Source of the DNA: an uncultured Phycisphaerales bacterium
GTDB taxonomy: Bacteria; Planctomycetota; Phycisphaerae; WQYP01
Assembly: GCA_903845195.1 (NCBI GenBank)
Contig: CAIMWO010000031.1
Location: forward strand, 69,207 to 133,206
Length of the DNA stretch: 64,000 bases
Direction of reading: 5' to 3'
Positions 38,800-57,119 of the stretch are shown here, piece by piece (the first letter of the stretch is position 1; each line of letters begins with the position of its first letter). Position numbers and translations under genes: made by a program. The notes beneath the pieces were generated by a model. It was not told where the DNA came from and did no database searches. It saw only the letters and a program-made list of their open reading frames with translations.

Positions 38800-38945
38800 C
38801 GAACGCCCACCGTCCTCATCAAGGGTGAACACGGATGCTGGGGCCTGTTGGTCCATCGCAACGAAGATGAGATGACAAGAAGACCACGATCTTAGAGGTG
38901 ACCGTCTTTTACGACAGACCCCAAAGACATGAAAGGAGATGTCAG

Positions 38946-39260
38946 ATGCGTCAGCAAACACCCCTCGAACAACTACACTTACCACCCGAAAAGATCCAGG
39001 CAATCAAAGCCGCGGGCATCACCTGCGTCGAAGAACTGTGTGCCAAACGGCTTACCGAGGTCGGCAACATTGTTGGCCGCACTATCGACGACATCAAGGA
39101 AGTCCGTGTGGCTTTAGCCGAACTTGGCTTGGACATACGGCGGCAATTTGAGGATCCAGCTGGCTCACCCGATATCCCCTCCCGCAAGGCGTTTCGTAGC
39201 CTTCTGGACCGCCTTGATCTGATGCCGCTAACGAGGGAAAAACAACGCTCCATTTACTGA
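38946..39260 (+). CDS. Small protein with an RNA polymerase alpha-subunit C-terminal-domain-like HhH motif.
   Basis: AAGGAG RBS. LHLPPEKIQAIKAAGITCVEEL matches the alphaCTD pattern LxLSxRxxNxLKxAGIxTVxDL. Confidence 0.4.
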   Translation: MRQQTPLEQLHLPPEKIQAIKAAGITCVEELCAKRLTEVGNIVGRTIDDIKEVRVALAELGLDIRRQFEDPAGSPDIPSRKAFRSLLDRLDLMPLTREKQRSIY

Positions 39261-39488: not shown

Positions 39489-39899
39489 ATGATTCCACTC
39501 GACGCACTTCACTTGCCTGATGAAATGCTACAGAAGCTCCGGGCTTTGGGTTACAACAGCGTTTGGGACCTACACGCGAGCAATAAATACACACTCCGAA
39601 TACGCTCGCGTCTTAGCATCAGTGCCGAAGAAGTTGACCAGATTGTTGCAGCCATGCGAGCCATCGGATGGGACTTTAAGGATCCAGCAGACGATCCGGT
39701 GGGTGCCGAAGACTTCCCCTCAGCAGTAGTCTTACGGAATTTACTGACCGCCCTTCGTCTTAATCCGCGGTCGAGCCGTTTCTTGAGATACTACTTGCGT
39801 GGTGTCAGCACATTGCCCGAACTGCTCAAGGGGATTGAGCCGGATGACACCGAAACGATTATCGGGCTTCTTAGGTTGATGAAGGTTGAGGATATTTGA
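39489..39899 (+). CDS. Paralogous alphaCTD-like small protein.
   Basis: AAAGGAG RBS. LHLPDEMLQKLRALGYNSVWDL. A second similar motif sits in the C-terminal half. Confidence 0.4.
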   Translation: MIPLDALHLPDEMLQKLRALGYNSVWDLHASNKYTLRIRSRLSISAEEVDQIVAAMRAIGWDFKDPADDPVGAEDFPSAVVLRNLLTALRLNPRSSRFLRYYLRGVSTLPELLKGIEPDDTETIIGLLRLMKVEDI

Positions 39900-40479: not shown

Positions 40480-40532
40480 ATACTCTTTGGATTAGGGGGC
40501 CATAGGTATCAATTATGCTTCTAGGAGAAAAT

Positions 40533-40793
40533 ATGTGGAAAATCAGTGATTACCAGTCGGGTAAGAATAATTCGGTAGATGAAATCGCCGCGTCAAACCT
40601 GAGGGTACGGACAAAACATCCTTTGAAGAATTTGGGCGTGAGGACCGTCGACGAACTGACGGCACTCAGTGCGACCCAGATCCAGCAGGCACGAAATGCC
40701 GGAGTAAATACTCTGCCTGATATCCAAGCCTTTCTGGCACATAGGGGTAAGTGTCTCGCCTCTCATTCGCTTCCGAAAATACCAAGCGAATGA
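40533..40793 (+). CDS. Third alphaCTD-like small protein.
   Basis: AGGAGAAAAT-ATG RBS. LRVRTKHPLKNLGVRTVDELTALSATQI. Confidence 0.4.
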   Translation: MWKISDYQSGKNNSVDEIAASNLRVRTKHPLKNLGVRTVDELTALSATQIQQARNAGVNTLPDIQAFLAHRGKCLASHSLPKIPSE

Positions 40794-41069: not shown

Positions 41070-43286
41070 CTATTTCACCTTCATAGAATCCCATAGCCGC
41101 TTGAAATCATCCCAATGTCTGTCGAATGTCCCGGCGGTTGTGGTTAGTGAAATCATCACGATCTTTCCGTTACTAACTGCCAAGACTTCTATTGTATGCA
41201 TCTTTATTCCTTTCGGCGCACGCTCAATGGTAAAAGCAATCGCCTCCGCGCCTGCTAAAGTGGTTTTTACAGGATCGGAATACTTTTCAGTTGGATTGTC
41301 TTTGTGGGCATTCACCACGATACGAGCATAAATATCCGCCGGACTATTATTAGGCCCACGCGATTGGAGCCATGAGACTAATATTTCATCATAAAGTCCA
41401 TCCACTGGTGGACCCGAAAAACGGAATCCTTGGCCGGCGGTCAACTGCGGGATACTCCGCTTGAAATTAGCTGGGTAGCTAAAGCTGATGTCATTGGTCT
41501 CATCGGCATAGTTCAGGTCTGGCTGATCCGTCGCTCCCGGCTGTCGGGCGAGAAGCCCTTTGAGAATTTGTATGGGATCATTTTGTTCGCCGGCGCCTGC
41601 CGGTGTAACAATGCCATTTTGCCGGTCTACAAGCGATTTCATCGCGCGGGTCTGATTGTCTGACAAAGCATTGGTTTCGTTTTGAAAGGTAAGCGCCAAT
41701 AGCTGATCTTCCTGAGTCTGCCTATTAGCTAGAGCCTGCCGATCCTGCGCCTGCCGCTGTAACAATTGATCCATTCGGTTTTTCTTTTCGGTAGCAGGGT
41801 CTACAACCACAACTTTGTCATGGTCGAAGCGAACTTTTGGAGATGACGCCGGTTTGGAGTTTAGAGCGTTTTGTTCTTGCGACTGCGCGTTCGCCAAGGC
41901 CGTGGTGTCTTTGCTATGCCGATTGACTATGTCGGCTTGACGCTGCTGCTGGCTCTTTCGTAAGTCGTCGCGAGACTGGGACTGTTGCAGTTTCAACGCA
42001 TCTATTTCACGATGATTCCGTGTCTGTTGTTGTCTGAGCTTTTCATCGTTTTGCTCGCGCGCGATGCGTTCCGCATCTTGATTCGCATCCGCATTATTGG
42101 AATGGTTGTTATTGGTCGATGGTATAATTTCTGGTGCGCTTGGCGTTCTATGTTCCTGCAACCATTTCTTAGCTACATCGTCGCCAAGTTCCGCCGCCTT
42201 CCGGAACCACTTGGCCGCTTCATCATCGTCCTTAGAAACGCCTCGACCCGCAGCGTACATGAAGCCGAGTTTTGTCATACCCGCGGGGTTGCCACGATCG
42301 GCTGCCTTCCGGAACCAGGCGACCGCTTTGGCATCATCATTAAGAACACCGCGAGCATTTTTGTACATGTTGCCGAGATTAGCCATGGCGATGACACTGC
42401 CTGCATCGGCGGCCCTCTGATACCATTTCACCGCTTCGGTATCGTCATTGGGAACACCGTGACCTTCGCCGTACATCCAACCGAGATAGCCCATGCCCTC
42501 AGCGTCACCAGCATTCGCAGCGTTTCGAACTAACTTGTACGCTTCGGTTTCGTCCTTAATCGTGCCGCGGCCGTTCATGTACATGTTGCCGAGATTAGTC
42601 ATGGCTGTGACATTACCAGCATCTACCGCCCTTCGGAACCACTTGACCGCTTCGGCATCGTCGTTGGTCACGCCGAGCCCGTCCCGGTACATTGAGCCAA
42701 GATTCATCATCCCATACGAATTGCCCGCATCCGCAGCTTTCTGGTACCACTTGACCGCTTGGACATATTCCTTCTGTACCCCAATACCTCTTTCGTAGCA
42801 GACGCCAACATCGTTAATTGCGAATAAGTTCCCTGAATTTGCGGCCTTTTGATATAAGTCGAATGCCTTAACGCAGTCTTTCGGCACTCCTTGGCCTTCC
42901 TGGTACTGTCTGGCGAGTCTCTCGGTTGCAATTGCATTGCGGGCGTCATCGTCTAGAGTTGCCGTTACGCCGGATTGCTGCGGAATAACCTTCTCAGATA
43001 CATCTGCAGTCCTATTTTGAAATATTGGCGTGGAATAATTTGGATTAGCCGTACCAATATGACGAGTCGAAGTCACAATCTGTAACAGGAATACAATTAA
43101 TAGCGGGAGGAGAATTGCTGCCCACATCGCGAGTATGAGCACTATTTTTAAGGGATGCAGAGCCGACGCGAATGGCACCGGAGCAAGCCCCACACTCTTT
43201 GCAGAATCGCGATGCGAACCAGATGGTCGCCCCTCTCCTGCCGCGGGTGAACTGCTCGATCTAGAAGTGTTTAATGGTATTGACAT
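41070..43286 (-). CDS. Sel1-repeat (TPR-like) membrane-anchored protein, last gene of the T7SS-like operon.
   Basis: 738 aa. AAGGA RBS. N-terminal TM. At least eight tandem Sel1 units (A.KWYRKAAEQGNA.AQ.NLG.MY..G.GV..D...A..W-type). C-terminal domain of ~200 aa. Confidence 0.65.
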   Translation of the reverse strand: MSIPLNTSRSSSSPAAGEGRPSGSHRDSAKSVGLAPVPFASALHPLKIVLILAMWAAILLPLLIVFLLQIVTSTRHIGTANPNYSTPIFQNRTADVSEKVIPQQSGVTATLDDDARNAIATERLARQYQEGQGVPKDCVKAFDLYQKAANSGNLFAINDVGVCYERGIGVQKEYVQAVKWYQKAADAGNSYGMMNLGSMYRDGLGVTNDDAEAVKWFRRAVDAGNVTAMTNLGNMYMNGRGTIKDETEAYKLVRNAANAGDAEGMGYLGWMYGEGHGVPNDDTEAVKWYQRAADAGSVIAMANLGNMYKNARGVLNDDAKAVAWFRKAADRGNPAGMTKLGFMYAAGRGVSKDDDEAAKWFRKAAELGDDVAKKWLQEHRTPSAPEIIPSTNNNHSNNADANQDAERIAREQNDEKLRQQQTRNHREIDALKLQQSQSRDDLRKSQQQRQADIVNRHSKDTTALANAQSQEQNALNSKPASSPKVRFDHDKVVVVDPATEKKNRMDQLLQRQAQDRQALANRQTQEDQLLALTFQNETNALSDNQTRAMKSLVDRQNGIVTPAGAGEQNDPIQILKGLLARQPGATDQPDLNYADETNDISFSYPANFKRSIPQLTAGQGFRFSGPPVDGLYDEILVSWLQSRGPNNSPADIYARIVVNAHKDNPTEKYSDPVKTTLAGAEAIAFTIERAPKGIKMHTIEVLAVSNGKIVMISLTTTAGTFDRHWDDFKRLWDSMKVK

Positions 43287-43298
43287 AATAATTCCTTA

Positions 43299-43508
43299 TC
43301 ATTCATATATGTTAAGCAGCGCCCGATTCATCTCCTCATCCAAGTCCTCCATGGCTTGGAGCAACATCATCGCGACTTGCTCACATTCTTGCCAACAATC
43401 GCGTTCGAACTTAGTTGCTGCCTGGTCGTTCCACTGGTCCTGTGTTGCAGCCCATTGTTTGGTAAGGCGTTGCCATTCGACGTACAAGAGTTCGGTTTGT
43501 TCGGACAT
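43299..43508 (-). CDS. Small acidic helical protein (~69 aa). Possible WXG-like or chaperone-like accessory protein.
   Basis: ORF track 43299..43571 starts at GTG. ATG at 43508 gives MSEQTELLYVEWQRLTKQW.... Trp-rich helical sequence. Confidence 0.3.
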   Translation of the reverse strand: MSEQTELLYVEWQRLTKQWAATQDQWNDQAATKFERDCWQECEQVAMMLLQAMEDLDEEMNRALLNIYE

Positions 43509-43571: not shown

Positions 43572-43886
43572 TCATGGCGTCATGGTCACCCGATCATGGC
43601 CTCGTTTGAGTGATGCTTTGGCCGGTTCCGGCTCGCGCACGAGCCAATCAAGCGTTAAAATCGCAGCTATCGGATTCATGCCGTGTTCCCTCATCAATGT
43701 CTCAATGTTATAGCCCTCGATAATTAGGGGTGATATCTGACCACTCGTCCACCACAGCTCAAATGCCACTTGTAGGGCAGGGGCGAGAGCGGTGAGATCG
43801 GTAGCAATCAACTCCGCACCATGGGGGGGATAGCCGAATTCATTGGAAAGCCTCGCTAACAACACTTCTTTTGAAATCGATATCAT
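43572..43886 (-). CDS. Putative immunity protein (~104 aa) for the upstream HExxH toxin.
   Basis: ATG at 43886 is 1 nt after the toxin stop, with a perfect GGAGGAG RBS inside the toxin 3' end. Small cytoplasmic protein. Confidence 0.45.
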   Translation of the reverse strand: MISISKEVLLARLSNEFGYPPHGAELIATDLTALAPALQVAFELWWTSGQISPLIIEGYNIETLMREHGMNPIAAILTLDWLVREPEPAKASLKRGHDRVTMTP

Positions 43887-43887
43887 T

Positions 43888-44949
43888 TTAATCTCCTCCG
43901 AGGGGATAAAGACGCAGCCGAATAGCACTTGCATACGTCCACGCGTCCGCCTCAATAGGTTGGGCTTTGTAACGCGCCTGGCCATACTTCTCAGCCGATA
44001 GGTAGTTACCAGGTATATTGTTGTTTCGCCAGGATGCCACTTCTTCTACATTGGAATGGAACATTGGGTGTTTAATGGCATAGTGCTGATAAGCATGACG
44101 TCCTTCATGAGCAATAGTATCGACGGTTTCTGATATGTCGTCCCACATCTTGGTATTAATATGAATTGCATGCTCATCAAAATACCCATAAGTTCTGGAA
44201 TCCATCTTTTCGGCAACGACTGGCACTGCCGGCCGACCTTGGACATTGGCGAGTTTATATTCGATTTCCTGAACAACTGTAACCCTTTCCTCGTCATTGA
44301 GGCTGATCCAGACCTTCGGGGTAAGTTGTATCATCCCTCTAAGCGAATCAACACCCCGGTCTGAAATCACCGAGCCTGGCAAATCGGAACCCGATGTCGG
44401 ATTAGTTGCATCTGAATGTGATTGCGCAGCAGAAGTCATGTTGATTGCCGATGGCTGATTTGCACCTAGATTCGGTTTGATTGACTGATAATGGTTTATG
44501 GCATCAATATGCTGCTGGAGAATGCCTTGGGAGCGGGGCACATGCTCACCAGCAAGTTCGGCAAACTCCCTTGTTCGTCTCTGGAATTCCTCATAGGCGT
44601 CCTGTACTTGCCCCATTGCCGCCGTTAGATCGTCAACTCGATCCTGAGCGGGGCTTAGGTCATTCCGTAGTTCAGAACGCCGCTCGGCGTTGAGATCCTC
44701 GCCGGTCTCTTCATCGGGGCTATAGTCAAGCGACGCCAATTCATCTTTAATCGAATCTACGCGTGCCTGAAGGGAGTGTAAGGAATGCGTTAGCTCTGAC
44801 CATTTGCTTTGAAACTTCCTATCGTAGAGTTCCAAACAGGATGTACCGCGGTTTGCAAACAGTCCAAGCGCAGCATGAAGAGTTTCCAGCGCTTCCAAAC
44901 ACTGAATATTAACGCTAAGACTGCTGGAGGTTTCTGTCGACATTGCCAC
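43888..44949 (-). CDS. Polymorphic-toxin-like protein. N-terminal ~200-aa helical (LXG/WXG-superfamily-like) secretion domain plus a C-terminal zinc-metallopeptidase (HExxH) domain.
   Basis: 353 aa. C-terminal TIAHEGRHAYQHY (HExxH). N-terminus is helical with heptad-like spacing. The ORF track start is GTG at 44949, with an ATG 2 codons in. Confidence 0.5.
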   Translation of the reverse strand: MAMSTETSSSLSVNIQCLEALETLHAALGLFANRGTSCLELYDRKFQSKWSELTHSLHSLQARVDSIKDELASLDYSPDEETGEDLNAERRSELRNDLSPAQDRVDDLTAAMGQVQDAYEEFQRRTREFAELAGEHVPRSQGILQQHIDAINHYQSIKPNLGANQPSAINMTSAAQSHSDATNPTSGSDLPGSVISDRGVDSLRGMIQLTPKVWISLNDEERVTVVQEIEYKLANVQGRPAVPVVAEKMDSRTYGYFDEHAIHINTKMWDDISETVDTIAHEGRHAYQHYAIKHPMFHSNVEEVASWRNNNIPGNYLSAEKYGQARYKAQPIEADAWTYASAIRLRLYPLGGD

Positions 44950-44967
44950 ACCACAAATACATCCGGG

Positions 44968-45237
44968 TTATCGATGATACTCCTCTTCAATAATGCGGGC
45001 TTTTTCTCGGAGGTATGCGACGTATTTCTCACAGTCCTCGAGAAATTGCGCCAACTTCACCGTAGTTTCGTCCAGATCCTGTTCAAAGGCTCGATACTTG
45101 GCATCGCGCCACGCGTCCCTCAACATCCGAGCCTTGTTGATTACAGAAAGGTTCTTTCCCCGCATATCTCTACCGAGCGTCTCTAGTACATTGGCAAAAT
45201 TTCGTGCCGCTTCAGGGTCGAAAATCGCTTGTGACAT
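44968..45237 (-). CDS. WXG100-like small helical protein (89 aa).
   Basis: AGAGGAAG RBS. ~90-aa two-helix composition. Follows a clearer WXG100 gene. Confidence 0.4.
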   Translation of the reverse strand: MSQAIFDPEAARNFANVLETLGRDMRGKNLSVINKARMLRDAWRDAKYRAFEQDLDETTVKLAQFLEDCEKYVAYLREKARIIEEEYHR

Positions 45238-45251
45238 GGCTTCCTCTCTTT

Positions 45252-45548
45252 CTAAAGGCGAGGTTTGACACTATGAAACTTATCAATTGCCGCGGCGTCA
45301 TGTTCCAAGTCTTTCGCGGCTAAACGCCCGCTAACTAAAAATTTAGCCAACGATTGCCGTGATTTTGCAAACTGATCGCAGAATTGCTCATACCCATCAT
45401 CACGAAAGGTATTCCCCAACCAAGTGAGATCACGCCGAATAGTGGTGTCGAATTCTTCGACATTATCACAAAAACGGGCTAACTCACGTGCAAATCCTCG
45501 GATTTCTTCAGAATTGGCGTAAACCCGTTTGGATCCTGCATCGCTCAT
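45252..45548 (-). CDS. WXG100-family (ESAT-6/EsxA-like) protein (98 aa).
   Basis: AGGAGG RBS. Central W-x-G (TWLGN) between two helices. Size ~100 aa. ATGA overlap with the upstream ATPase stop. Confidence 0.5.
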   Translation of the reverse strand: MSDAGSKRVYANSEEIRGFARELARFCDNVEEFDTTIRRDLTWLGNTFRDDGYEQFCDQFAKSRQSLAKFLVSGRLAAKDLEHDAAAIDKFHSVKPRL

Positions 45549-48500
45549 GACGATCCTCCTTTAATTTGACTTGCGACCTGTCGAATCCACGCGAGGTCAG
45601 GCAGGCGGTAAGGTCTATATTTCTGAACTGGAGCATTTTGGACAGCATCCACAAAGAACATTCGGTGCTGCTTTCCTTCCAAACGTGCCGCGTCGGGAAC
45701 GTCGAGAAAAGCTCGCGATTCCTCTGGTGAGAGCGCTGCGGACGTCTTTAGTCCGAAATTGGCCATCGAGCGTTTGAGTGTCTTCACGGCGGTTGGGTGA
45801 GTATCACACCATGCCAAAACATGAATACCAAATTCTGCCCCATCCTTGAGGATGGAACAAAACAAATCGTAAAGACTGGTTTCCCGAACCGTACCAATGA
45901 CAGGAAAGCCTCCATCATCGGTTGGTCGTAAGTCCCGCGCGCGGTGGAGGCCTGCGATAATGAGATATGTAGGTGTTATGTCTTCTTTGCCGTCAATTCG
46001 CAATCGTATGCGGTCAACTATTCCCTGAAGTGCAGTGCGCAGCATTGGTCGGGAAAGTCTCTGAATAAAGTGGAAGTCAAACCGCTCACATATCTCGTCG
46101 ATCAAAGGAGGACATGGGCCATCGGGCGACGTAAAATCCAATAGATAAAATTGAGAAGCCTGTGGTACATTCTGTGCCATTAGTGCTATCCACGCAGAGA
46201 GAAGAACCCCCATCCCTTCAGACTCATCACGATTGAGTACCATCAAGTTTGCGTCAGTTTGATGACCCAATAGCACTGGAATCGGCCCTGAGAGATTTAG
46301 TGGCTCCCCGAGCCAAATTGTCGCCGCTCTTCCACGAGGACGGACAGACTTTGTTTGGAACATCTGGGTCAGCGGTTGGCATTGTTCCAAGTTCGGTGGT
46401 TCATCGGCCTCGAATACTATAGGTATACGATTACTGCCATCAATCGCCGCCGCGGCCTTTGCGATGCCTCGTACGTAAACTGCAATTTCTTCATTCTCTT
46501 TGGTTTTATCTTTATCATCTTTGCCGATTAGTGCAACTTGGAAATCTTCGTTAGCTTCGAGCCGGCCGCCATCCCCGTTATAGATTGCCTGGCCGGGCTG
46601 CGTGAGTTTTGATGCCACAAGTTTCTGCCTCGGCAACAATATTTCAGCATCAACATCGCTACAAGGTAATGCAATCCGCAAGCCCATCAATCCAAACATG
46701 CTGCTCAGTCGCGACATATCTGATCCTGCCAGTGTTTGAGTGACCAAAATTAGGTGTATGCCGAATTGCCGTCCTTGCTTTACTAGTTGGGTCAAAAGGG
46801 ACCGCGCTTGTTCGGCAACGCTGTCCTCGTTAGCGAAGAATTCTTGGAATTCGTCTGCGATCAAGAGAATCCGTGGGAGTACATCATCAGCAGATGCCCT
46901 ATTTCTATATGCGGCTACACTCTCCACCCCACCAGCGTTACGAAAAAGATCCATACGTCGGGTCATTTCCGCGCTAAGCTTTTGCAGAACGCTAAGTCCA
47001 AATTCTCGATCACTTTGAATGGCGATGACTTTTGCATGTGGTAAAGAATTCTGCGCATACGGTTTGAAACCGACACCGCCTTTGAAATCGATGAGATAAA
47101 GCTCTATTTCGTGGGGTGGATACGTTAATGCCAATCCGGTGATCAATACGTGCATTAATTTGGTTTTTCCGGAGCCGGGCTTGCCTATGACCAAGCCACT
47201 GTGCGTGGTACCGTTCCCTCCTAACGTGAGATACTGGAGTTGCCCAGCTTTGCCAGGGCCTAGTGGCACGCGGATATCGTTTGCCGTTGACGATTCGTTC
47301 TTCCATATGATGTTTGCCCCATCCAACCCAGCCTGTTTGAGCATATCAGCAAACGGCACCTCAATCTTCATGGCCTCCTTTGAAGTCGTGCCGGCCTTGT
47401 GAATGATGTCGTTGAATAATTCATCGCCTGGAGGTAGATCAGGTAGCACTTGAGCATCGAAGAGGTCTTTGTCCTGCCACGTTACCCCTTGGGGTCCCCA
47501 CTCTATAATGCTGGCAACTTTGTCTAATTCATTGAGATTGAAACCGTAGGGCGCAATCTCATCTTTGCTTACATCTCTGATAATTAGTGTGTAGACGCCG
47601 CATCGCTGCCCATTGCGAATAATGGTCAGCAGTCGATCTGCCGCCGCCTTGGAGAATCCACACGGGAAGTCGAAGATAACTAGGAATCGAAACGCCTCCG
47701 CGACGGCTCGTTGTTCAGCGTTGTAATTATTAAGTGTCGCATATTTGTTACGGAGCAGGTTGCTAATTACCCTTTCCATATGGCTAGTGAGTTCCGTCAG
47801 CCGCTGCTCAATGTCGCCAGGCTCAGTCCAGGGCTTTTGGTTAATCAATGACTTGTCATGGTCCCCTAGGGCGAGGAAAGACGCCACGTTCTGGCCTATC
47901 CCGACTGGATCGATAAACGTGAACCGTAATTTGCCCGGCGGCGTGTTGGCAAGCATCCGCAACATGACTGACTGCATCGCCTTCGTTGCGGCGTCTTTAT
48001 TGACACCTTCCGCTTTCAAAAGCAGGCAGCGATTGTCTGTAAAGGGAACGAGTGCTGGTAGTCTAAAATCGAGGTTCAATCTAGGAAGATGGGCCTTTAG
48101 AAACCGAGTATCAAGTACGAGTTGACCGATTTGTGCGGCGAAACCGGGAGATGGGTCTGGGGCCCATGTATTCCATACGGGATCGTCCCATTTAGCTCCC
48201 GCGTATTGGGAACGTGAGGTAAAAGAAGAGAATTCAACATAAAATTGTGCCGCTTTGGGCTTAAGCAATATTTCATTCCTAACCATTTCTATGGCATGGA
48301 GATTTACAGCTGCCTGAAAACCGTTGTGCATATTATTGTTGGCCTGTTCCATACAATTATTGAGACAGGCTTCTGCGACAGCCCGATGATGCTGCAATTG
48401 TTGATAGCGCCGCTCTGACCTGAAGGCGGCGTACCAACGTAGAGTGACCATGACAGCTAGATAAAGGATTGGTGCAAAACAAAGTGCAATGCAGACCGTT

Positions 48501-48970
48501 CCAATGAGTAAAAATATGTAGGGACTGATTGTCCCTTCATTAATTGGCCAGAGTGAAGGTTTTTTAATTCGGCAGATTGCATCCAGATCGGCCTTGACTG
48601 AATTGGCATATGTTGTGGCTACTGCCCAATCGCCAGAATCGCCGTGTGGATCGACTGTGGGCGCATGTCCATGATATACTTTCTGTAGTTCTAGGTATTG
48701 TATCGCTTGATTGTGCCAATCTGTTAATGCGGTTCGTATTTCATTTACCGCAGTTGTTGCGTTTTGATATTGAGCCTCGATGCTTTTTTTATCAGCGTTC
48801 AGCTTCGTATCCGCTGCATCTATTTGTTGCCAGTAAGGTTCCAGTAGCTCGGACTTAATCCGGCCAACTATGTTTTTGGCTTCTGATGGAAGTTCGAACT
48901 CGATTAGCCCATCATCGGACACAGCTGAGGACGCAGCCCTTTGATATCCCGTAGCTGATACTGGGTCCAT
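45545..48970 (-). CDS. FtsK/SpoIIIE-family triple-ATPase-domain membrane protein, EssC/EccC-like type VII secretion ATPase.
   Basis: 1141 aa. GAGGTAA RBS. N-terminal ~150-aa region then a TM segment ISPYIFLLIGTVCIALCFAPILYLAVMVTL. Domain 2 has canonical Walker A GKPGSGKT and Walker B LLIADEFQEF. Domains 1 and 3 are degenerate FtsK-like. Confidence 0.65.
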   Translation of the reverse strand: MDPVSATGYQRAASSAVSDDGLIEFELPSEAKNIVGRIKSELLEPYWQQIDAADTKLNADKKSIEAQYQNATTAVNEIRTALTDWHNQAIQYLELQKVYHGHAPTVDPHGDSGDWAVATTYANSVKADLDAICRIKKPSLWPINEGTISPYIFLLIGTVCIALCFAPILYLAVMVTLRWYAAFRSERRYQQLQHHRAVAEACLNNCMEQANNNMHNGFQAAVNLHAIEMVRNEILLKPKAAQFYVEFSSFTSRSQYAGAKWDDPVWNTWAPDPSPGFAAQIGQLVLDTRFLKAHLPRLNLDFRLPALVPFTDNRCLLLKAEGVNKDAATKAMQSVMLRMLANTPPGKLRFTFIDPVGIGQNVASFLALGDHDKSLINQKPWTEPGDIEQRLTELTSHMERVISNLLRNKYATLNNYNAEQRAVAEAFRFLVIFDFPCGFSKAAADRLLTIIRNGQRCGVYTLIIRDVSKDEIAPYGFNLNELDKVASIIEWGPQGVTWQDKDLFDAQVLPDLPPGDELFNDIIHKAGTTSKEAMKIEVPFADMLKQAGLDGANIIWKNESSTANDIRVPLGPGKAGQLQYLTLGGNGTTHSGLVIGKPGSGKTKLMHVLITGLALTYPPHEIELYLIDFKGGVGFKPYAQNSLPHAKVIAIQSDREFGLSVLQKLSAEMTRRMDLFRNAGGVESVAAYRNRASADDVLPRILLIADEFQEFFANEDSVAEQARSLLTQLVKQGRQFGIHLILVTQTLAGSDMSRLSSMFGLMGLRIALPCSDVDAEILLPRQKLVASKLTQPGQAIYNGDGGRLEANEDFQVALIGKDDKDKTKENEEIAVYVRGIAKAAAAIDGSNRIPIVFEADEPPNLEQCQPLTQMFQTKSVRPRGRAATIWLGEPLNLSGPIPVLLGHQTDANLMVLNRDESEGMGVLLSAWIALMAQNVPQASQFYLLDFTSPDGPCPPLIDEICERFDFHFIQRLSRPMLRTALQGIVDRIRLRIDGKEDITPTYLIIAGLHRARDLRPTDDGGFPVIGTVRETSLYDLFCSILKDGAEFGIHVLAWCDTHPTAVKTLKRSMANFGLKTSAALSPEESRAFLDVPDAARLEGKQHRMFFVDAVQNAPVQKYRPYRLPDLAWIRQVASQIKGGSS

Positions 48971-50119: not shown

Positions 50120-51440
50120 GTGTGCAGACGGAAGATCGGTTGTCTGAAACTGTTCGTGTGGCATCACCCTGCTTCTACGCCGCCTTCCTGTAATAATGCC
50201 GCATCAGTCCACCAAGGAATGTTCGGCACTTCACTTCGCCCTTCGCTGTTGGCCGTGGCGGCGGGGACTGACCGGGGAATCGAAGTGGCTCGTTCGACTT
50301 CGACTGATGGGGCCGGTGGGTGTTGTAAAACGCCACGGCCTGTCGAGCGATGTAATCCAAATGGGCCAAACTGAAACCGTAAAAGTGGTTCAGACACTCT
50401 CGCTTGAAATTTCCGATCCATGATTCTGCGAAGGCGTTCGCATCGGGAGCCTCGAACGGCGTCTTTACTACCTTCACGCCATCGTTCCGAAAAATGGTGT
50501 CGAATTCCTCCGAGAACTTCTTGTCTCGATCATGCAGGATGAATCGCTGCTCGATGCCCGCATCATCCAACCACATCTTCAGGTTGCGTGCTTGCTGACA
50601 CACCCACTCCTCCTCGGGATGGTACGTCGCAGGCGACAGGAACACCTTCCGGCTCTCAACATGGATGAACATCAAGAAGTAGGCCGTCTTCTTGCCCAGC
50701 GGCGTCAGCACGTCCTTGCAGAAAAAATCACACGCCACGAGCGTGTTCATGTGCAACTCGATGAACTTCCGCCACGGGGAGTCAGGGACTCGGTGGGCAC
50801 GACGATGGGGGTCAGGGTACAGCCCCTCCTTCTTCAGGATGCGTCGGATGGAAGATCGTCCCACCTTTTCCCCCAGCTTCCGAAGTTCCCCGGTTATCCG
50901 GTTGATGCCCCACCCAAGGTTCTCCTTGCCAAGCCGGATCACGAGGTCGATGAGTTCCTTAGCCAACTTCGGGCGGCCCACCTTCTTGGGCTGCTTCCCA
51001 TCTCGCTCTTCCCGCTGCCAAGTCCGGTAGGTTTTGAGGCTCACCACTTGGAGGGTATCTTGAACTGCATGGCTCAGTTCGGCACCGAGGGCCAATAACC
51101 GCTTACGGTCGGTCGGGTCGATGACGACCCGGTTGCCCGGCAATTTCTTACGCAGTATTTCGTTCTGGAGTTTAAGGAAACGGACTTGAGCATCACGGCG
51201 GGCCGAAAGGCTCTCCATCAGCATCACGAGAACCATATGAAACCACTGCGGCATGGAAAATGGCCTTTCAAAAAAAGAAGCCATAAACCCTGTAACGGCA
51301 AAGGCCCGACAATTTGGACCCTTGCTACGCAGTTTCAACTTACAACACGAATTGGGGTGGGGCGAATTTCTCCCTCAACTACCCTCATTTTCATGCAAAT
51401 CGTCCAACCTATGGACTAAGGCATCCCGAATCATGCGACA
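50120..51440. mobile_element. Insertion sequence (approximate boundaries) carrying the transposase above.
   Basis: Transposase ORF with ~50-100 bp flanks. Possible imperfect terminal inverted repeats around ~50135-50160 and ~51325-51350 (gaaactg / cagtttc). Boundaries not resolved by eye. Confidence 0.35.
50175..51338 (-). CDS. DDE transposase (integrase-core rve domain with an N-terminal HTH), single-ORF IS481-like type.
   Basis: 387 aa, TTG start. HTH GRPKLAKELIDLVIRLGKENLGWGINRITGEL. rve motifs ACDFF (D), LHDRDKKF (D), downstream E. Confidence 0.65.
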   Translation of the reverse strand: MKLRSKGPNCRAFAVTGFMASFFERPFSMPQWFHMVLVMLMESLSARRDAQVRFLKLQNEILRKKLPGNRVVIDPTDRKRLLALGAELSHAVQDTLQVVSLKTYRTWQREERDGKQPKKVGRPKLAKELIDLVIRLGKENLGWGINRITGELRKLGEKVGRSSIRRILKKEGLYPDPHRRAHRVPDSPWRKFIELHMNTLVACDFFCKDVLTPLGKKTAYFLMFIHVESRKVFLSPATYHPEEEWVCQQARNLKMWLDDAGIEQRFILHDRDKKFSEEFDTIFRNDGVKVVKTPFEAPDANAFAESWIGNFKRECLNHFYGFSLAHLDYIARQAVAFYNTHRPHQSKSNEPLRFPGQSPPPRPTAKGEVKCRTFLGGLMRHYYRKAA

Positions 51441-51760: not shown

Positions 51761-54700
51761 TCAGAAGTTCGCGTAGCCCCAGAATTGGGGTTCTAGGCGG
51801 GCTTCAATGGCTTCGTCAGAAGTACCGGTGGCCTGACGGTTGGACCAATAGAGGCGATCTTTGACTTGGTTGCCATCGTCAGTGGTGAGGAAGCCCCAGT
51901 CCATACGGAGTCGGAGTCCTTTCTTGGGTTTGAGGCCGAGGTCGGAAAGGGGGATGGAGGCTTCGACGGTGAAGTCGTTGCCACCGGAGGCGGCGACTTT
52001 GGCGTTCGGGAGTTCGACGACGCGTTGGAAAGCGGTTTCGCCACCGGCGGGGGTGTAGGCGCGCCAGGCTTCGGTGGCTTTGGCGCCTGGGGCGACGGGT
52101 TGATAGAGGACGACGCGCGGTTTTCCGGCAACCATGGAGATGAGGAGTCGCAGATCGCCTGCGACGGGCTTGGTGCGGGCGGGGTCGGCGTCAGGGCTGG
52201 TGCCGAGGAGGAGGTCGACGGCGGCGCCGGTCTTGAAGAGGCGTTGAAAATCGCCGCCGGAATTCTTAAACGGACCGATCCCTTTGGCGGTCCAGCAGAG
52301 ATAAAGATTCTTCTCGTCATAGGCCATGGAAAAGGTGTGCGGGTTGTCGTTGCCCATGGTGGCGCCGGCATCTCCCCATTCCTTGGGCTTGCGAAGACCA
52401 TCGATCTTGGGCGTTTCGCCATCGAGAGGATCGATGGCCTTGACCTTAAGGATGGAGGGCCGGCTTTCAACGAGCCTCCGGACCTGCTGCGATTCCCAGG
52501 CTTTGGCGCGATCGATATCGGCCTGGGTGACGGTGAAATCAGTGGTGACGCGTTTGAAACGGTCGAGGCCGCGGACTTCCATGATGCTCATGCTGGTGAA
52601 GCCGGTGATGATGTAGTATTTGCCGGTGGCCTCGGCGCGGGTGAAGAAGCCGTGGAAGTGTTCCTGTGAGCCGGTGAGCGGATCGACGCGCATGCCGGGC
52701 TTGATGTCGGGCATGGAGAGGAAGTGGGCGCGGGGGTCGGTTTTGTGAAGGAGGATTTGTCCTGCGAGGAGCCCGTCGGCGGTCCAGATGCGCCACTGCC
52801 CATCGTTGCCGGAGGTGACGACAAATTCGCCGAGATCGCCGGGGTCGGTTTCGTGTCCGATGATGCCGAACTCGTTGGCGACATCGCCAGCTTTCCATGG
52901 ATGGATGGAAAGGCCCGAGACGCCGGCGTTGGAGACGGGGTAGGACCAGAGGAGCTTGCCATTGGGATCGGTGACGAAGTTGCTTTCGGGCCCGTCGGCG
53001 CCGGGGTGACCGTGGAGGGTGAGGAAGTTGCCATTGTTGAGTTTGAGGAACGAGCCGCGGTTGGGCGAGGCGACGCGCTGGTAGACGGGCGAACCGTTGG
53101 GGAGGGTTTCTTTAACCTCGTAGCGTGCATCGGTACCCATGCATCCGAGCTGGGTGTCGAAGGGACCGAATGCGGGTCCTCGTTCGTCGTCGGCCTTGGG
53201 TTCAAAGGTGACTTCGTCGGGCGAAACCTTGCCGTCGCCATTGCGGTCGGTCCAGATAAACTTGAAATCTTCGGGGCATTTTCCGCCGAGGAGAGAGACG
53301 ATGGCGCTGGCGCGCAGGGGCGGGAAGTGGTCGGCGTTGCCAAAGGCGGCGACCATGCGCACGGGCGTATTGTCATCGGCGAGGTAGACGATGGGGACGG
53401 ATTGGCGGTCGTTGAGCGTGATGGGGACAGTCACGAGGTAGGTATGGCCATTGGCCCGGGCCGCGACGAGATCGTTACCGTAGAACGGCTGGACGAGCTG
53501 GCTGTGGATTCGGGAGAAGTTCTTGGCGTAGTCGATTTCGAACTCGGTGTTGCCGAGGTAAGCACGGGAGATGTCGTAACGGTTGAGAGTGCCGCCGCCG
53601 CCATAATGCGTACTGCCGGTCATTTCCTTGAGGAGCTTGCCGGTAGTGGCGTTGTATTGGAGGACGCGGCGCGGGTTGTCGACGCCTTCGACGATCCAGA
53701 GGCTGAGGTTGCGGTCGACGCACATGGAGATGACGTTGCGGTTGAAGCGCTGGGGGTCCCAGGGCCCGACCGCAGCGCCGCCCGGATTGCCGATGGTGTG
53801 GAGAAATCTTCCGGAGGTATCGAAGACGCGGACAGTGCCGTGGCCGACGTCGGAGAAATCCATGACATAGAGGTTGCCATCGGGACCGACGGCCATATTG
53901 GCGCATTCGACGTTGACGAGCGTGGTCAGTGCACCGGTGTCGGTGTTGACTTTGACGATGGAGCGGTGGTCGCCGTTGATGGCGACGAGCTCGCCGGACG
54001 GGAGAAAGCCCAAACCATGCCAGCCAAGGTGGACAGGGAGCTCTTTGAGGAGTGTGCCGGTAGTGCCATCGTGGATTTCAAGGCGTTCGTAGACGAGGGA
54101 GTCGATGGGGGGTTCCCCGCCGAGGTATTGGAGGGGCGCGACGCCGTAGATTTTGCAGCGGCGGGTGTCAAGGTTCATGATGTAGGACTTGGAGATATGC
54201 ATGCCGTGTTCGTCGCGGCCGTCATGACGGAGGCAGCCGCCTTCGGCGTTGTCCATCCAGGGCTCGACGATGCGGATGCGGACGGCGCGGGTGGTCTGGG
54301 AGGTGCGAACGCCATTCTCTTTGAATTCGACGTAGCCATCGATGTAGTTGGCGTATTGATTGTCATCAGCTTTGTATTTTGCGGTGCGGCGGCCGGGTTT
54401 GAAGGTGGCGACATTTTTCCAGCCGGCGGTGGTGGGGGAGGCGACGGGCGCATCGAGGGGGATGGTGCCATCGGGTCCGTTCCAGACGTCGATCTCGGCA
54501 CGAGCGCCATCAATTTCCTTGATCGCCAGGCCATCGATCTTCTGGGGGGTGGTCCATTCCATGAGATAGACGGCGGGTTTGTCCTCGCCGATGGATTCGG
54601 TGCGCTGGGCTTCCCATTCGCCGTTGGCAGTGGGTTTGCCGGAGTTGACGCGGATGGCGGCGGTAGTGGAGAGATCCTTGAAACGGCGGTTGAGGATGCG

Positions 54701-56932
54701 GAGGCCGTCGAGGTGAGCGAACCACTGTTTGTCGCTGAGAGCATCTCCGCCGGAGCGGCTGATCTTGACGCGGAGGGCGCGGGTCAGTGTGTTCTCGGCG
54801 GCGGTGAGGCATTCCCAGCGGCCGGGGCGGCCCTGGTCGGGAAGTGGCGTCCAGTCTTTGTTGTTGGAGGGCCGTGGAGGGAAGGGGGCATCAGCTTTGA
54901 GGACGCTGAATTCGAGTTTGTCCGTGGTGACGGGGTGGGGGAAAACAATGCTGCCGATGGGGACGGGCTGTTTGAAGGCGATGACGGTGTATTGTTCATC
55001 GCCGGTGCCTTCGGTGGTTTCGAGGTTGAGGTCGCCATTGCCCTGGGGCTTGCCGGTCTTGGCGGGGGCCTCCTTGCCGGGGACTCTTCCGCCGAGGCGG
55101 AGGAGGTGTGGAAGTTGCGTGGTGGGTTTGGGCAGGCAATGTTCGAGATCGACGCCGGCGGTGGAGGTGGGGTTGTCGAAGAGGGGGATGCCGGAAAAGG
55201 CGAGATAGACTTTGTTGTCGTGAGCGGAGATGGCGGTGAGGCTTCCGCGGCGTTCGGGGGTGCCGATGGGGAAGATGACGCTGGCTTCGTGGGTGGCGGG
55301 GTCCATGCGGTAAATTTTATGGCCGGTGGATTCGATGAAGACGGATTTCTGATCTGCGGTGAGGCGATTGACGCCGAGCCATGCGCCGAAGTCGTGACGG
55401 CCCCAGAGTTTTTTGCCATCGAGGTCGGTTTCGATCATGCAGACGCCGGCTTCAGCCATTGGCGCGCCGAAGTAGACGTGGTCGCCGACGGAGGTGACGG
55501 CCCAGTTCTGAGAGTGGTCGGAGAGCCAGCCGTTGGGGCCGTCGTGGCTGGTGAGCCACGGGGTGCGGTCGGGGAAATAGTTTTGCACGTTGGGGTAGGG
55601 GCAATTCTGGAAGACGAGTTCGACGAGAGGCCCGGTGATGGCCTTGAGCCGGTAATTGCCAGGGGCGACATAATTTCCAGTGGGATCTTTGAGGTTCCAG
55701 GGGATTTCACGGGTGGCTTTGGGGAGAACGGTCTGGGCCGAGAGATTCAGGAGGCGATGGCCATCTGCGGTGTCGATCGCCAACGCGGACGGCCCCTCGG
55801 CGGTGATGGCGGCGGGGATGCGGAAGGGAGGGCCATCATCGCGCTGGGTGATTGCGGGCGGGGTGGCGTCTTTCAGATCAATGAAAGAGCCGAAGCCGCT
55901 GATCCAGGCGTCGTTTCCATTGCTGCCGGTGATTTCAATTTTTACGGCGCGCGTGGCGCCGGCAGGAAGGTTCACCCAGCGGGTGAAGTAGCCCCACCAT
56001 TTGAATTTGTGAGTGCATTCGCGAACGGCGGCGGCATCAATCTTTTCCCAATCCTGTGCGGGGGCCAGAGCGGGGTTAGCGGCGACATCGCCCTTCATGC
56101 GATAGACGTTGAAGGCGGTGATATTGGAACTGAAAAAGAGGCCGGCGATGTCCTGAGGTTTATCCCAGGCCAGGACATACCAGGTCGGATTCTTGGGCGT
56201 GGGGGCGGTGTTCTTGGACTTGGTTTTTCCGGCGGCGAGGCTGGACCAGCCGGTGCCGCGGGCGATGCCGTCGGGATCTCCCGCGCTGGCGCCGCCTGCA
56301 CAGTAGCCTTTGGCGGAAAAGGTGAGGTCGGCAAGGCGGGCGCGATAGAAATTCCAATGGGCGAGGCTGGAGGAGCCTGCAGTACGGACGTCACGATAAA
56401 GGAAGGCGCGGGTTTTTGTGCCTGGTGGAAGGGCGGCGCTGCGGAGAAGCTGCTGAACGCCAGTGAATTCAATTTTATTCCACTGGGCCTGGTCGACGGG
56501 ATTGGGGGCTGCCGAGACATTGTCTTTGAGGTAGAAGACTTCACCGCCGTTCCGGGAGCCGGTGTTGGTGGAGAAATCAGCAGGTTCGATGGCGACGGTG
56601 CCGACGGTGACGGGTTCCTTGAGCACGACGAGGTAATCGAACGTGGTCTCCGCGTCGACTCCAACTTTTCCCGCTTCCCAGCGATTTTCCTCCCAATTGC
56701 CGTCAGGCGAGGTCAGACCGAGGGTGCGGGAGACGATGGCGGCATCGCCGGGTGTGGCTTTGCCGTTGAGAGACGTGCGGGTGAGGGTCATGTCGATCTT
56801 GTCGGCGGAGAAGGCGAGGGTGAAGGCATCGCCGGTGGGGCGCGGTTCAGCCCAAGTGGAAAGGAGGAAGGCGGCACTGGCGAGGATCGCGAAGGCAGGG
56901 AGCAGGAATTTTGTTCGTTTGCGCGAGTTCAT
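51761..56932 (-). CDS. Giant secreted protein (1723 aa) with beta-propeller-like repeats and a C-terminal carbohydrate-binding-like (CBM9/DOMON-like) domain.
   Basis: Signal peptide MNSRKRTKFLLPAFAILASAAFLLSTWA. Repetitive Gly/Asp/Thr-rich beta-strand composition. C-terminal ~250-aa region with conserved W/Y/G pattern. Confidence 0.65.
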   Translation of the reverse strand: MNSRKRTKFLLPAFAILASAAFLLSTWAEPRPTGDAFTLAFSADKIDMTLTRTSLNGKATPGDAAIVSRTLGLTSPDGNWEENRWEAGKVGVDAETTFDYLVVLKEPVTVGTVAIEPADFSTNTGSRNGGEVFYLKDNVSAAPNPVDQAQWNKIEFTGVQQLLRSAALPPGTKTRAFLYRDVRTAGSSSLAHWNFYRARLADLTFSAKGYCAGGASAGDPDGIARGTGWSSLAAGKTKSKNTAPTPKNPTWYVLAWDKPQDIAGLFFSSNITAFNVYRMKGDVAANPALAPAQDWEKIDAAAVRECTHKFKWWGYFTRWVNLPAGATRAVKIEITGSNGNDAWISGFGSFIDLKDATPPAITQRDDGPPFRIPAAITAEGPSALAIDTADGHRLLNLSAQTVLPKATREIPWNLKDPTGNYVAPGNYRLKAITGPLVELVFQNCPYPNVQNYFPDRTPWLTSHDGPNGWLSDHSQNWAVTSVGDHVYFGAPMAEAGVCMIETDLDGKKLWGRHDFGAWLGVNRLTADQKSVFIESTGHKIYRMDPATHEASVIFPIGTPERRGSLTAISAHDNKVYLAFSGIPLFDNPTSTAGVDLEHCLPKPTTQLPHLLRLGGRVPGKEAPAKTGKPQGNGDLNLETTEGTGDEQYTVIAFKQPVPIGSIVFPHPVTTDKLEFSVLKADAPFPPRPSNNKDWTPLPDQGRPGRWECLTAAENTLTRALRVKISRSGGDALSDKQWFAHLDGLRILNRRFKDLSTTAAIRVNSGKPTANGEWEAQRTESIGEDKPAVYLMEWTTPQKIDGLAIKEIDGARAEIDVWNGPDGTIPLDAPVASPTTAGWKNVATFKPGRRTAKYKADDNQYANYIDGYVEFKENGVRTSQTTRAVRIRIVEPWMDNAEGGCLRHDGRDEHGMHISKSYIMNLDTRRCKIYGVAPLQYLGGEPPIDSLVYERLEIHDGTTGTLLKELPVHLGWHGLGFLPSGELVAINGDHRSIVKVNTDTGALTTLVNVECANMAVGPDGNLYVMDFSDVGHGTVRVFDTSGRFLHTIGNPGGAAVGPWDPQRFNRNVISMCVDRNLSLWIVEGVDNPRRVLQYNATTGKLLKEMTGSTHYGGGGTLNRYDISRAYLGNTEFEIDYAKNFSRIHSQLVQPFYGNDLVAARANGHTYLVTVPITLNDRQSVPIVYLADDNTPVRMVAAFGNADHFPPLRASAIVSLLGGKCPEDFKFIWTDRNGDGKVSPDEVTFEPKADDERGPAFGPFDTQLGCMGTDARYEVKETLPNGSPVYQRVASPNRGSFLKLNNGNFLTLHGHPGADGPESNFVTDPNGKLLWSYPVSNAGVSGLSIHPWKAGDVANEFGIIGHETDPGDLGEFVVTSGNDGQWRIWTADGLLAGQILLHKTDPRAHFLSMPDIKPGMRVDPLTGSQEHFHGFFTRAEATGKYYIITGFTSMSIMEVRGLDRFKRVTTDFTVTQADIDRAKAWESQQVRRLVESRPSILKVKAIDPLDGETPKIDGLRKPKEWGDAGATMGNDNPHTFSMAYDEKNLYLCWTAKGIGPFKNSGGDFQRLFKTGAAVDLLLGTSPDADPARTKPVAGDLRLLISMVAGKPRVVLYQPVAPGAKATEAWRAYTPAGGETAFQRVVELPNAKVAASGGNDFTVEASIPLSDLGLKPKKGLRLRMDWGFLTTDDGNQVKDRLYWSNRQATGTSDEAIEARLEPQFWGYANF

Positions 56933-57119
56933 AGAGATTCCTTTGCGGATGAACGTGCGATTTGGAGGTCACATGCGAAATGACACAAGGACTAGGGGAC
57001 GCGACTACAAGAGTTTCGAGAACAGAAATCTATTAGAGAAGCAGGAATAAAGAATCAAGAAGAAAGAAAAAGAGTACCTAACCTTCTTGATTCTTCCTCC
57101 TTACTTCATAGACAACATC

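Follow-up and report, generated by a model that had tools for sequence, protein, structure and literature searches.

In a 64,000-nucleotide stretch of the genome of an uncultured Phycisphaerales bacterium (assembly GCA_903845195.1, contig CAIMWO010000031.1; hereafter the window), two adjacent minus-strand genes encode a protein that ends in a predicted zinc metallopeptidase domain and a 104-residue partner. The reading that we consider probable is that the first protein is a zinc-protease effector delivered by machinery that resembles type VII secretion systems (T7SS) and that the second is its neutralizing partner. Under this reading the pair would have putative toxic and immunity functions, a putative secretion route, and a putative antibacterial target. 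The evidence that carries it is the conservation of the peptidase domain in a very large protein family, the adjacency of the partner gene to that domain across loci, and the behavior of the two together when loci with the same ATPase are compared. All noted features of the pair lie on the minus strand, as read from the window sequence and its list of open reading frames (ORFs).

The zincin-like domain and its partner gene

The peptidase gene occupies positions 43888..44949 (minus strand) and encodes 353 aa from a GTG; public gene calls for identical contigs start two codons further in, at the ATG at 44943, and give 351 aa. An earlier reading made from the sequence only had assigned this protein a HExxH zinc-peptidase signature, and the motif is present as HEGRH (residues 281-285; nt 44095-44109), part of TIAHEGRHAYQHYAIKHP. 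The domain around it spans residues 196-353 (158 aa; 43891..44364, minus strand), as delimited by conservation, AlphaFold2 (AF2) modeling, and sub-threshold profile matches, and the 31 homologues found by sequence search share only the last ~155 residues of the protein. Key residues are invariant in 30 homologues, namely W214, E230, R239, G255, T278, H281, E282, G283, R284, H285, and Q288 and, further along, W307, N310, Y316, Y327, Q330, E333, and D335, which yields the family signature HExxHxxQ ... QPxExDA. E333, encoded at nt 43951-43953 within QPIEADA, is the putative third zinc ligand. Searched against 1.84 billion proteins clustered at 50% identity, a profile of the C-terminal domain retrieved 5,576 cluster representatives at E<=1e-3; the stricter limit of E<=1e-10 gave 3,031. 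A bare HExxH is expected by chance in roughly one in a hundred proteins of this size, an estimate from typical residue frequencies; we take the motif as real because of the residue conservation and the size of the family.

Structure prediction agrees with this assignment. Modeled alone with AF2, the C-terminal domain (predicted local distance difference test score, pLDDT, 96.5; predicted template-modeling score 0.91) consists of three short strands, a long helix bearing HEGRH, and a terminal helix that begins at the invariant Glu; in domain numbering, HEGRH lies within helix 77-98 and E138 starts helix 136-152. This confident alpha/beta model puts the motif on the canonical helix of a zincin and not on a non-peptidase helix, the outcome that would have undone the earlier proposal. 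The top Foldseek matches in the PDB are all zincins, comprising jannalysin (4jix), PprI/IrrE (8slm, with a Foldseek probability of 0.89), Spartan (6mdw), thermolysin, and lethal factor, none of them significant (E>0.3), and a profile search of PDB sequences aligned the Spartan strands and HExxH helix at E=0.18.

No Pfam or NCBIfam model reaches its threshold for the window peptidase protein. Its C-terminal domain scores 18.6 bits against DUF6782 (cut-off 27) and likewise stays below the cut-offs of DUF3920 (16.9 bits against 27.3) and SprT-like (16.1 against 25.6). Sub-threshold matches to DUF6782, SprT-like, and DUF3920 recur in 21/23, 19/23, and 12/23 family members, respectively, and distant relatives exceed the Pfam cut-offs (P0148, DUF6782, 50.9 bits; P0184, DUF3920, 32.5 bits). 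Because these relatives pass and the window domain does not, we read the relationship as clan-level kinship with DUF6782/DUF3920/SprT-like and not as membership. The SprT-like affinity suggested earlier thus survives as a weak match only, and the suggested Tox-MPTase or DUF4157 assignment falls away, since neither the window protein nor any of the 23 family members matches these models at E<=1. On the combined sequence and model evidence, we conclude that the C-terminal domain is genuine, a divergent zincin-like domain with kinship to DUF6782, DUF3920, and SprT-like proteins. Sequence and predicted fold together also give the gluzincin layout, with HExxH on a helix and a downstream Glu as the likely third zinc ligand, and the domain is predicted to bind zinc and to be catalytic. 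Most family members are about 180-270 aa long and, like the window protein, have no other enzymatic domain. The peptidase domain is C-terminal in 88 of the 89 ORFs of the collected loci and internal only in L042, where a 2,284-aa protein from Terriglobales (L042:5979-12833) has it at residues 673-821 and ends in a "GT4-conflict" glycosyltransferase domain.

The second gene of the pair (43572..43886, minus strand) encodes 104 aa from an ATG at 43886, which lies 1 nt past the TAA of the peptidase gene (43888-43890). A GGAGGAG Shine-Dalgarno-like site (43893-43899, minus strand) is embedded in the 3'-terminal part of the peptidase gene, 6 nt upstream of the partner ATG; the 1-nt spacing of the two genes and this site, both of them part of the sequence-only reading, can be read directly in the sequence. 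We treat the product as a cognate partner and a candidate immunity protein or inhibitor on the basis of its adjacency to the peptidase domain across loci. It is a helical, cytosolic protein in which hydrophobicity analysis finds neither a transmembrane (TM) segment nor a signal peptide. It has no match in Pfam, NCBIfam, or PADLOC, and its PDB matches lie at E>0.1. None of the known immunity families (SUKH, Imm*, and others) is matched by the partner; the family shows only a weak similarity to SAM_6, seen in 7/27 members with a best E=3.7e-4. A BAG-domain reading, which the Hsp70-like genes of 32 related loci would invite, was considered and not adopted, the match being at chance level (E=0.12) and the window containing no Hsp70 gene.

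Scanning one genome per species gave 234 loci; we kept 80 of these, and the counts given here for loci with the domain use 86 non-redundant loci. With hidden Markov models (HMMs) of our own, a partner homologue was found next to the peptidase gene and on the same strand in 72 of the 86, directly downstream in 59 and directly upstream in 10. This adjacency does not depend on the N-terminus to which the domain is joined, be it an LXG-like hairpin (L001, L004), a WXG100 domain (L011), or an acidic disordered leader (L006, L009), or on whether the ATPase nearby is of the FtsK type or the HerA/DUF87 type, and it was seen in all of the metagenomic contexts examined first. The pairwise divergences of domain and partner are correlated (r=0.68), with the partner diverging slightly faster. 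In one locus (L094:3376-5776), where three peptidase paralogues stand in tandem, only a single partner gene was detected, and it separates the second paralogue from the third.

The converse survey used the window-type ATPase as the sole bait to fetch 80 metagenome loci, and the peptidase domain and the partner were found in 0/80 of these. The downstream gene is therefore, as had been claimed, a cognate partner, one tied to the peptidase domain and not to the secretion genes. That it belongs to the domain rather than to the export machinery argues against a secretion chaperone; inhibition of the peptidase is its putative role.

The components of the export cassette do recur in the ATPase-bait loci. 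The hairpin found at the N-terminus of the window protein is present in 52/80 (HMM of the hairpin alignment), a WXG-like gene in 51/80, and a ~70-aa gene in 56/80. Most of the 52 hairpin proteins stand alone at 160-195 aa, and 13 have a C-terminal extension of at least 90 aa. These extensions are varied. Profiles support only an Imm33-like domain, which is of the immunity and not the toxin type, and a DUF6782-like domain with a HEGTH motif that stays sub-threshold (24.3 bits, cut-off 27). Others carry a HEMGH motif without a profile match, a sub-threshold DnaJ-type zinc finger, or low-complexity tails, and nuclease-like motifs of PD-(D/E)xK-like and ParB-like kind were assigned by visual inspection, with PDDEXK_4 reaching no better than E=0.048. 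The Imm33-like extension, with a DSGW motif, is above or near the Pfam cut-off in three proteins (L140:4132-5166, L145:1411-2436, and L156:737-1810) and sub-threshold in a fourth (L161:4416-5465); a further protein (L149:4383-5438) has no profile match and a weak BLAST similarity to the L161 protein only. In L105, the extended hairpin gene is separated from the ~70-aa gene by an extra gene, in the position that the partner has in the window.

The window order of ATPase, WXG, WXG, hairpin::peptidase, partner, and ~70-aa gene recurs in metagenome-assembled genomes (MAGs) of Armatimonadota (L023) and Acidobacteria (L040, L053). In L006 the peptidase and partner genes stand in tandem behind a gene for an HNH protein (21.2 bits, cut-off 21.4), which has a SUKH/SMI1_KNR4 immunity gene of its own after it. 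We observe that an acidic leader with DLGG motifs is common to three consecutive proteins of that array (L006:4580-6910), a 102-aa protein, the 182-aa HNH protein, and the peptidase protein, and that Band-7 and HerA-like ATPase genes are located upstream of the array. Taken together, the locus surveys and the L006 array suggest that the domain and its partner behave like a movable toxin/immunity-type cassette grafted, to judge from gene content, onto a four-gene T7SS-like core.

The secretion-type cassette, its setting, and HerA-type relatives

The N-terminal part of the peptidase protein is a helical hairpin of ~157 aa (44479..44943, minus strand) formed by helices 6-75 and 88-157 (pLDDT 82-97) in a full-length AF2 model built from a 30-sequence alignment (mean pLDDT 86). 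A disordered, Ser/Thr/Asn-rich linker (44365..44478, minus strand; pLDDT <50 for residues 164-188) connects it to the peptidase domain. The long helical N-terminus proposed earlier is borne out, except that it measures about 157 aa rather than ~200 aa. Its proposed resemblance to LXG/WXG delivery domains holds in architecture and not in profile similarity. The elongated two-helix N-terminus (~70 residues each), beside small WXG100-type genes and an FtsK/SpoIIIE ATPase, reproduces the LXG-type layout, but the hairpin protein has no LXG (PF04740) match at E<=1 in the Pfam scan, and alignment of the hairpin to the WXG-like proteins of the locus with hhalign gave a probability of 7.5%, a level at which WXG homology is not demonstrable. 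The hairpin recurs in related loci, stand-alone or with other extensions, and none of the copies in the ATPase-bait loci carries the window C-terminal domain. By analogy, we regard the hairpin as a conserved LXG-like core or trafficking module of the cassette, with trafficking as its presumptive role.

The minus-strand gene order is ATPase, 98-aa protein, 89-aa protein, hairpin::peptidase, 104-aa partner, 69-aa protein, and Sel1 protein. The ATPase (45545..48970, minus strand; 1141 aa) belongs to the FtsK/SpoIIIE family (PF01580, 99.9 bits) and is related to EssC/EccC. Its one intact Walker A motif (GKPGSGKT, residue 596) is located mid-protein, and residues 145-179 make up a single hydrophobic stretch, 35 residues long; no FHA domain was detected in Pfam and NCBIfam scans. 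Its scores against the equivalog models are 134.9 bits for TIGR03924 EccCa (cut-off 509), 92.1 for TIGR03928 EssC (cut-off 778), and 90.4 for TIGR03925 (cut-off 346), and homologues of 33-43% identity occur in >80 metagenome loci. The 98-aa WXG100-like helical protein (45252..45548, minus strand) matches the HMM of the WXG-like cluster of these loci at E=2.7e-12, and its gene start overlaps the ATPase stop by 4 nt. The 89-aa WXG100-like helical protein (44968..45237, minus strand; same HMM, E=3.2e-33) has W-R-D where W-x-G is expected and matches PF25547 WXG100_2 at E=0.011. Cluster members in L001, L004, and L011 have PF06013 matches; the window proteins are below the PF06013 cut-off. The earlier description of two WXG100 genes and an EssC-like ATPase upstream of the pair is correct in kind, given the cluster HMM matches and the clear FtsK_SpoIIIE domain, although the EssC/EccC and WXG100 cut-offs are not reached. 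A third small helical protein of 69 aa (43299..43508, minus strand; cluster HMM E=1.6e-32) is the product of the conserved cassette gene that follows the pair, and hhalign relates it to the WXG-like cluster with a probability of 82.5% (E=1e-5).

The ATPase is membrane-anchored, and the small proteins, the hairpin::peptidase, and the partner have neither a TM segment nor a signal peptide. ORF clustering across the 86 loci found none of EssA, EssB, EsaA, YukD, EccB/D/E, or MycP to be conserved; only the ATPase, WXG-like, hairpin, and ~70-aa genes are, which defines a four-gene core. Judged from the gene layout, the set from the ATPase to the partner is one tight operon with the WXG100-like genes and the EssC/EccC-related membrane ATPase. 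A promoter and terminator scan was uninformative, as it returned fewer sites than shuffled controls did.

The last gene of the apparent operon encodes a 738-aa Sel1-repeat protein (41070..43286, minus strand; PF08238, E=1.2e-66) with TM residues 39-77. A Sel1 gene follows the pair here and in Bacteroides finegoldii (L052:9462-11123), in only 3 of the 86 loci overall; the link is probably coincidental, and the protein is unlikely to be a conserved part of the system. On the other side, the cassette is flanked by an rve_3 integrase/transposase gene (50175..51338, minus strand; PF13683, E=6e-11), and the G+C content is 0.485-0.511 over 40-50 kb, against 0.53-0.62 outside. Given the transposase flank and the low G+C, the cassette region is probably a horizontally acquired mobile island. 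Searches of plasmid and phage collections gave no match. Further features of this neighborhood include a 1,723-aa ORF at 51761-56932 (minus strand) with no Pfam match, 62% G+C, and a GC skew of +0.23 to +0.27, and a 1,419-aa ORF on the opposite strand of the same DNA (52724-56983, plus strand). Downstream of the cassette lie small plus-strand ORFs at 38898-39260, 39489-39899, and 40515-40793 that look alike by eye, and one of the three has a weak match to an RNA-polymerase-alpha C-terminal-domain-like (helix-hairpin-helix) model in precomputed annotations of identical contigs.

A second genomic setting is common among the loci with the domain. In 59/86 loci, a ~920-aa HerA/DUF87-like ATPase with a hydrophobic segment is encoded just upstream of the peptidase gene; an Hsp70-like ~640-aa gene precedes this ATPase gene in 32 loci and a further ~315-aa gene is found in 25, all on one strand. 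These loci occur in Bacteroidales, Clostridia, and Anaerolineae (for example B. finegoldii JCM 13345, AP027244.1, L052:2118-8763), and their peptidase proteins have acidic N-terminal leaders and no signal peptide. In gut Bacteroidales, Clostridia, and Anaerolineae, the arrangement may reflect an export or conflict system that has yet to be described. A broader proposal, which we put forward tentatively and think possible rather than probable, is that the pair is the signature cargo of an undescribed FtsK/HerA-ATPase-driven export family; the window would hold its minimal WXG-type form, and a second form, the one common in gut Bacteroidales, Clostridia, and Anaerolineae, would combine the HerA/DUF87-like ATPase, the Hsp70-like protein, and acidic-leader cargo and would be a new route of interbacterial antagonism. 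Some peptidase genes that lack a partner have, immediately upstream, genes for Cys-rich CXXX-repeat peptides of about 80-95 aa (L036:7520-7765, L038:7503-7787, L062:7524-7763, and L072:7134-7412), and a PapB-like radical-SAM/SPASM maturase of a ranthipeptide-type cluster is encoded upstream of another such member (L080:6472-7554). The acidic "LExLE" leaders of the Cys-rich peptides resemble the N-termini of the neighboring peptidase proteins.

Proposed mechanism and competing explanations

In the mechanism that we propose, the window protein would be a two-module effector. Its hairpin would be the core or trafficking part of a minimal four-gene T7SS-like cassette, made up of the WXG100-like protein, the hairpin protein, the ~70-aa WXG-related protein, and the membrane FtsK/SpoIIIE ATPase with one active P-loop. 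The hairpin protein would have gained, through the disordered linker, a gluzincin-type domain (HExxHxxQ plus a downstream Glu), and this domain would have arrived with its own 104-aa partner gene, placed exactly between the hairpin and ~70-aa genes. Translationally coupled to the peptidase by the 1-nt spacing and the internal Shine-Dalgarno site, the partner may bind the domain and silence it in the producer cytoplasm. By analogy with LXG-Lap complexes (PMC10801868), the hairpin would bundle with the small WXG-like proteins to form an export signal that the ATPase recognizes, and the exported peptidase would then harm a target cell or compartment by proteolysis.

Several observations weigh against the effector and immunity reading. 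The partner, at about 50% identity across phyla, is unusually conserved for an immunity protein and resembles no known immunity family, and 14/86 loci, mainly from one Bacteroidales subclade, have no detectable partner. Some hairpin extensions, such as the Imm33-like one, are not toxin domains and yet occupy the position expected for toxins. The hosts of window-type cassettes include diderm phyla, and no outer-membrane component is conserved. Toxicity, inhibition, and export are all deduced from sequences and predicted structures. Finally, the peptidase domain could be accessory in many relatives where a nuclease domain precedes it.

This last point leads to the alternative that fares best, which we nonetheless judge unlikely: the HExxH domain would be an accessory processing or maturation peptidase that releases or activates co-exported cargo, or itself, and the partner would be a regulator or chaperone. 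The domain indeed follows an Endonuclea_NS_2 domain (above the Pfam cut-off) in P0105, P0153, P0085, and P0116 and a borderline Colicin-DNase/WHH match in L052, and the PVC-metallopeptidase of polymorphic toxins, whose HExxHxxQ-E signature is the same, acts mostly as a releasing peptidase (PMC3482391). The partner-less Bacteroidales subclade has as neighbors a PapB-like radical-SAM maturase and Cys-rich peptides with the acidic leader of this subclade, and the partner is more conserved than typical immunity proteins. The nuclease-preceded relatives and this subclade are what keep an accessory role in play. However, neither the window nor most family members, at about 180-270 aa, offer a second enzymatic domain to be processed, and the C-terminal location of the domain in 88/89 ORFs is the usual position of a toxin. 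The partner follows the domain across unrelated delivery contexts and vanishes with it, the L006 pair is arrayed like a toxin/immunity cassette beside HNH and SUKH genes, and none of the 23 members scanned matches the DUF4157 profile.

Quite unlikely, in our assessment, is an intracellular conflict module of the abortive-infection or toxin-antitoxin-like kind, in which the ATPase cassette would serve as a sensor or effector within the cytoplasm, without any secretion. PADLOC matches the ATPase domains to the anti-phage proteins SspH, mad8, HerA, and DndH, and in other phyla the pair lies near HerA-like ATPase, Hsp70-like, DnaJ-zinc-ribbon, Band-7, ThiF, and STAND-like genes. The fusion to a GT4-conflict glycosyltransferase in one case, the lack of signal peptides, and the diderm hosts with no conserved outer-membrane conduit would also suit such a module. 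On the other hand, the combination of WXG100-like proteins and a membrane-anchored ATPase related to EssC/EccC is the hallmark of type VII export. Neither the peptidase nor the partner has a PADLOC model, and the ATPase matches there reflect the generic FtsK/HerA P-loop. Nor was there a match in the phage or plasmid collections, and in L006 the SUKH immunity gene and the HNH protein that shares the leader are signs of exported polymorphic toxins. A chance HExxH motif in a non-enzymatic helical protein followed by an unrelated ORF, for which one might cite the lack of a Pfam or NCBIfam match at cut-off for either protein and the nonsignificant Foldseek and PDB profile matches, is effectively refuted by the conservation data: HExxH, Q288, E333, and D335 are invariant in a family of thousands, the confident alpha/beta model places the motif on the canonical helix, the sub-threshold matches are consistently to zincin families with distant members passing the DUF6782/DUF3920 cut-offs, and the partner is adjacent in 72/86 loci.

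If the effector and immunity reading is correct, the pair would represent a large unannotated toxin/immunity-type family of thousands of clusters, with the threshold of a Pfam model reached by neither the peptidase nor the partner. It would also mean that a transposase-flanked four-gene T7SS-like cassette can be armed with an enzymatic domain and a cognate gene, as firmicute LXG systems are, which would bear on the existence and the workings of type-VII-like export beyond monoderm bacteria. The pair would further mark the HerA-type ATPase loci of human-gut Bacteroidales and provide a handle on a possibly new antagonism system. Were the pair not toxic, it would still be a widespread zincin with an obligate partner. 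Our literature search found no paper on the peptidase/partner family or on DUF6782.

Comparison with known systems

One close parallel is with the LXG toxins of firmicute T7SSb, such as TelA-C, EsxX, and TelE, which have Lap-type small helical partners (PMC10801868, PMC6193138). Like these, the window protein has an elongated helical N-terminus, a C-terminal domain of the variable kind, and a cognate downstream gene, and it is encoded with small WXG100-type proteins and an FtsK/SpoIIIE ATPase; in both cases small partners plausibly bundle with the N-terminus as an export signal. Unlike them, it has no Pfam LXG match, WXG homology of its N-terminus is not demonstrable, and the hairpin protein is mostly stand-alone in related loci, as befits a core component rather than a constant toxin carrier. 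EssA, EssB, EsaA, and YukD are also absent from the conserved genes here, and related cassettes come from MAGs of Acidobacteria and Armatimonadota. The cassette departs from canonical T7SS in that the EssC/EccC equivalog cut-offs are not reached and extra membrane components are not conserved across the 86 loci.

The machinery itself fits the "mobile versions of T7SS" of Zhang et al. (2012), which consist of solo WXG genes and a YueA-like ATPase whose middle domain alone is active (PMC3482391). The 1141-aa membrane ATPase with a single mid-protein Walker A motif and the WXG-like genes alongside fit this description, and the transposase flank and low G+C agree with mobility, as does the occurrence in Gram-negative-type phyla with the earlier account. 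In contrast to those systems, the present cassette also encodes a hairpin protein of ~160 aa, which is conserved, as well as a WXG relative of ~70 aa; the version in the window bears an enzymatic C-terminal domain with a cognate partner.

As a small alpha+beta zincin at the C-terminus of a trafficking module, the peptidase domain recalls Tox-MPTase1-5 and the PVC-metallopeptidase/DUF4157 (PMC3482391), and its HExxHxxQ...E signature is identical to that reported for the PVC-metallopeptidase (PMC3482391). It differs in having no Tox-MPTase or DUF4157 profile match at E<=1 and in its tightly linked partner, a cognate immunity family for Tox-MPTase/PVC-metallopeptidase domains not being reported in that survey (PMC3482391). 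DUF6782, DUF3920, and SprT-like proteins are its best profile neighbors, and the Spartan strands and HExxH helix align with it, but a secretion function or a partner is not described for these families. ImmA/IrrE (PprI; COG2856) offers another parallel, with PprI among the top structural matches and a small zincin gene next to a gene for a small cognate protein. The partner described here, however, has no detectable helix-turn-helix, the peptidase is fused to secretion-associated modules, and the context is an ATPase/WXG cassette and not a regulatory switch of a prophage or integrative and conjugative element. The kind of system, a probable T7SS-like toxin/immunity cassette, is a known one, whereas the peptidase/partner family within it is uncharacterized and very widespread.

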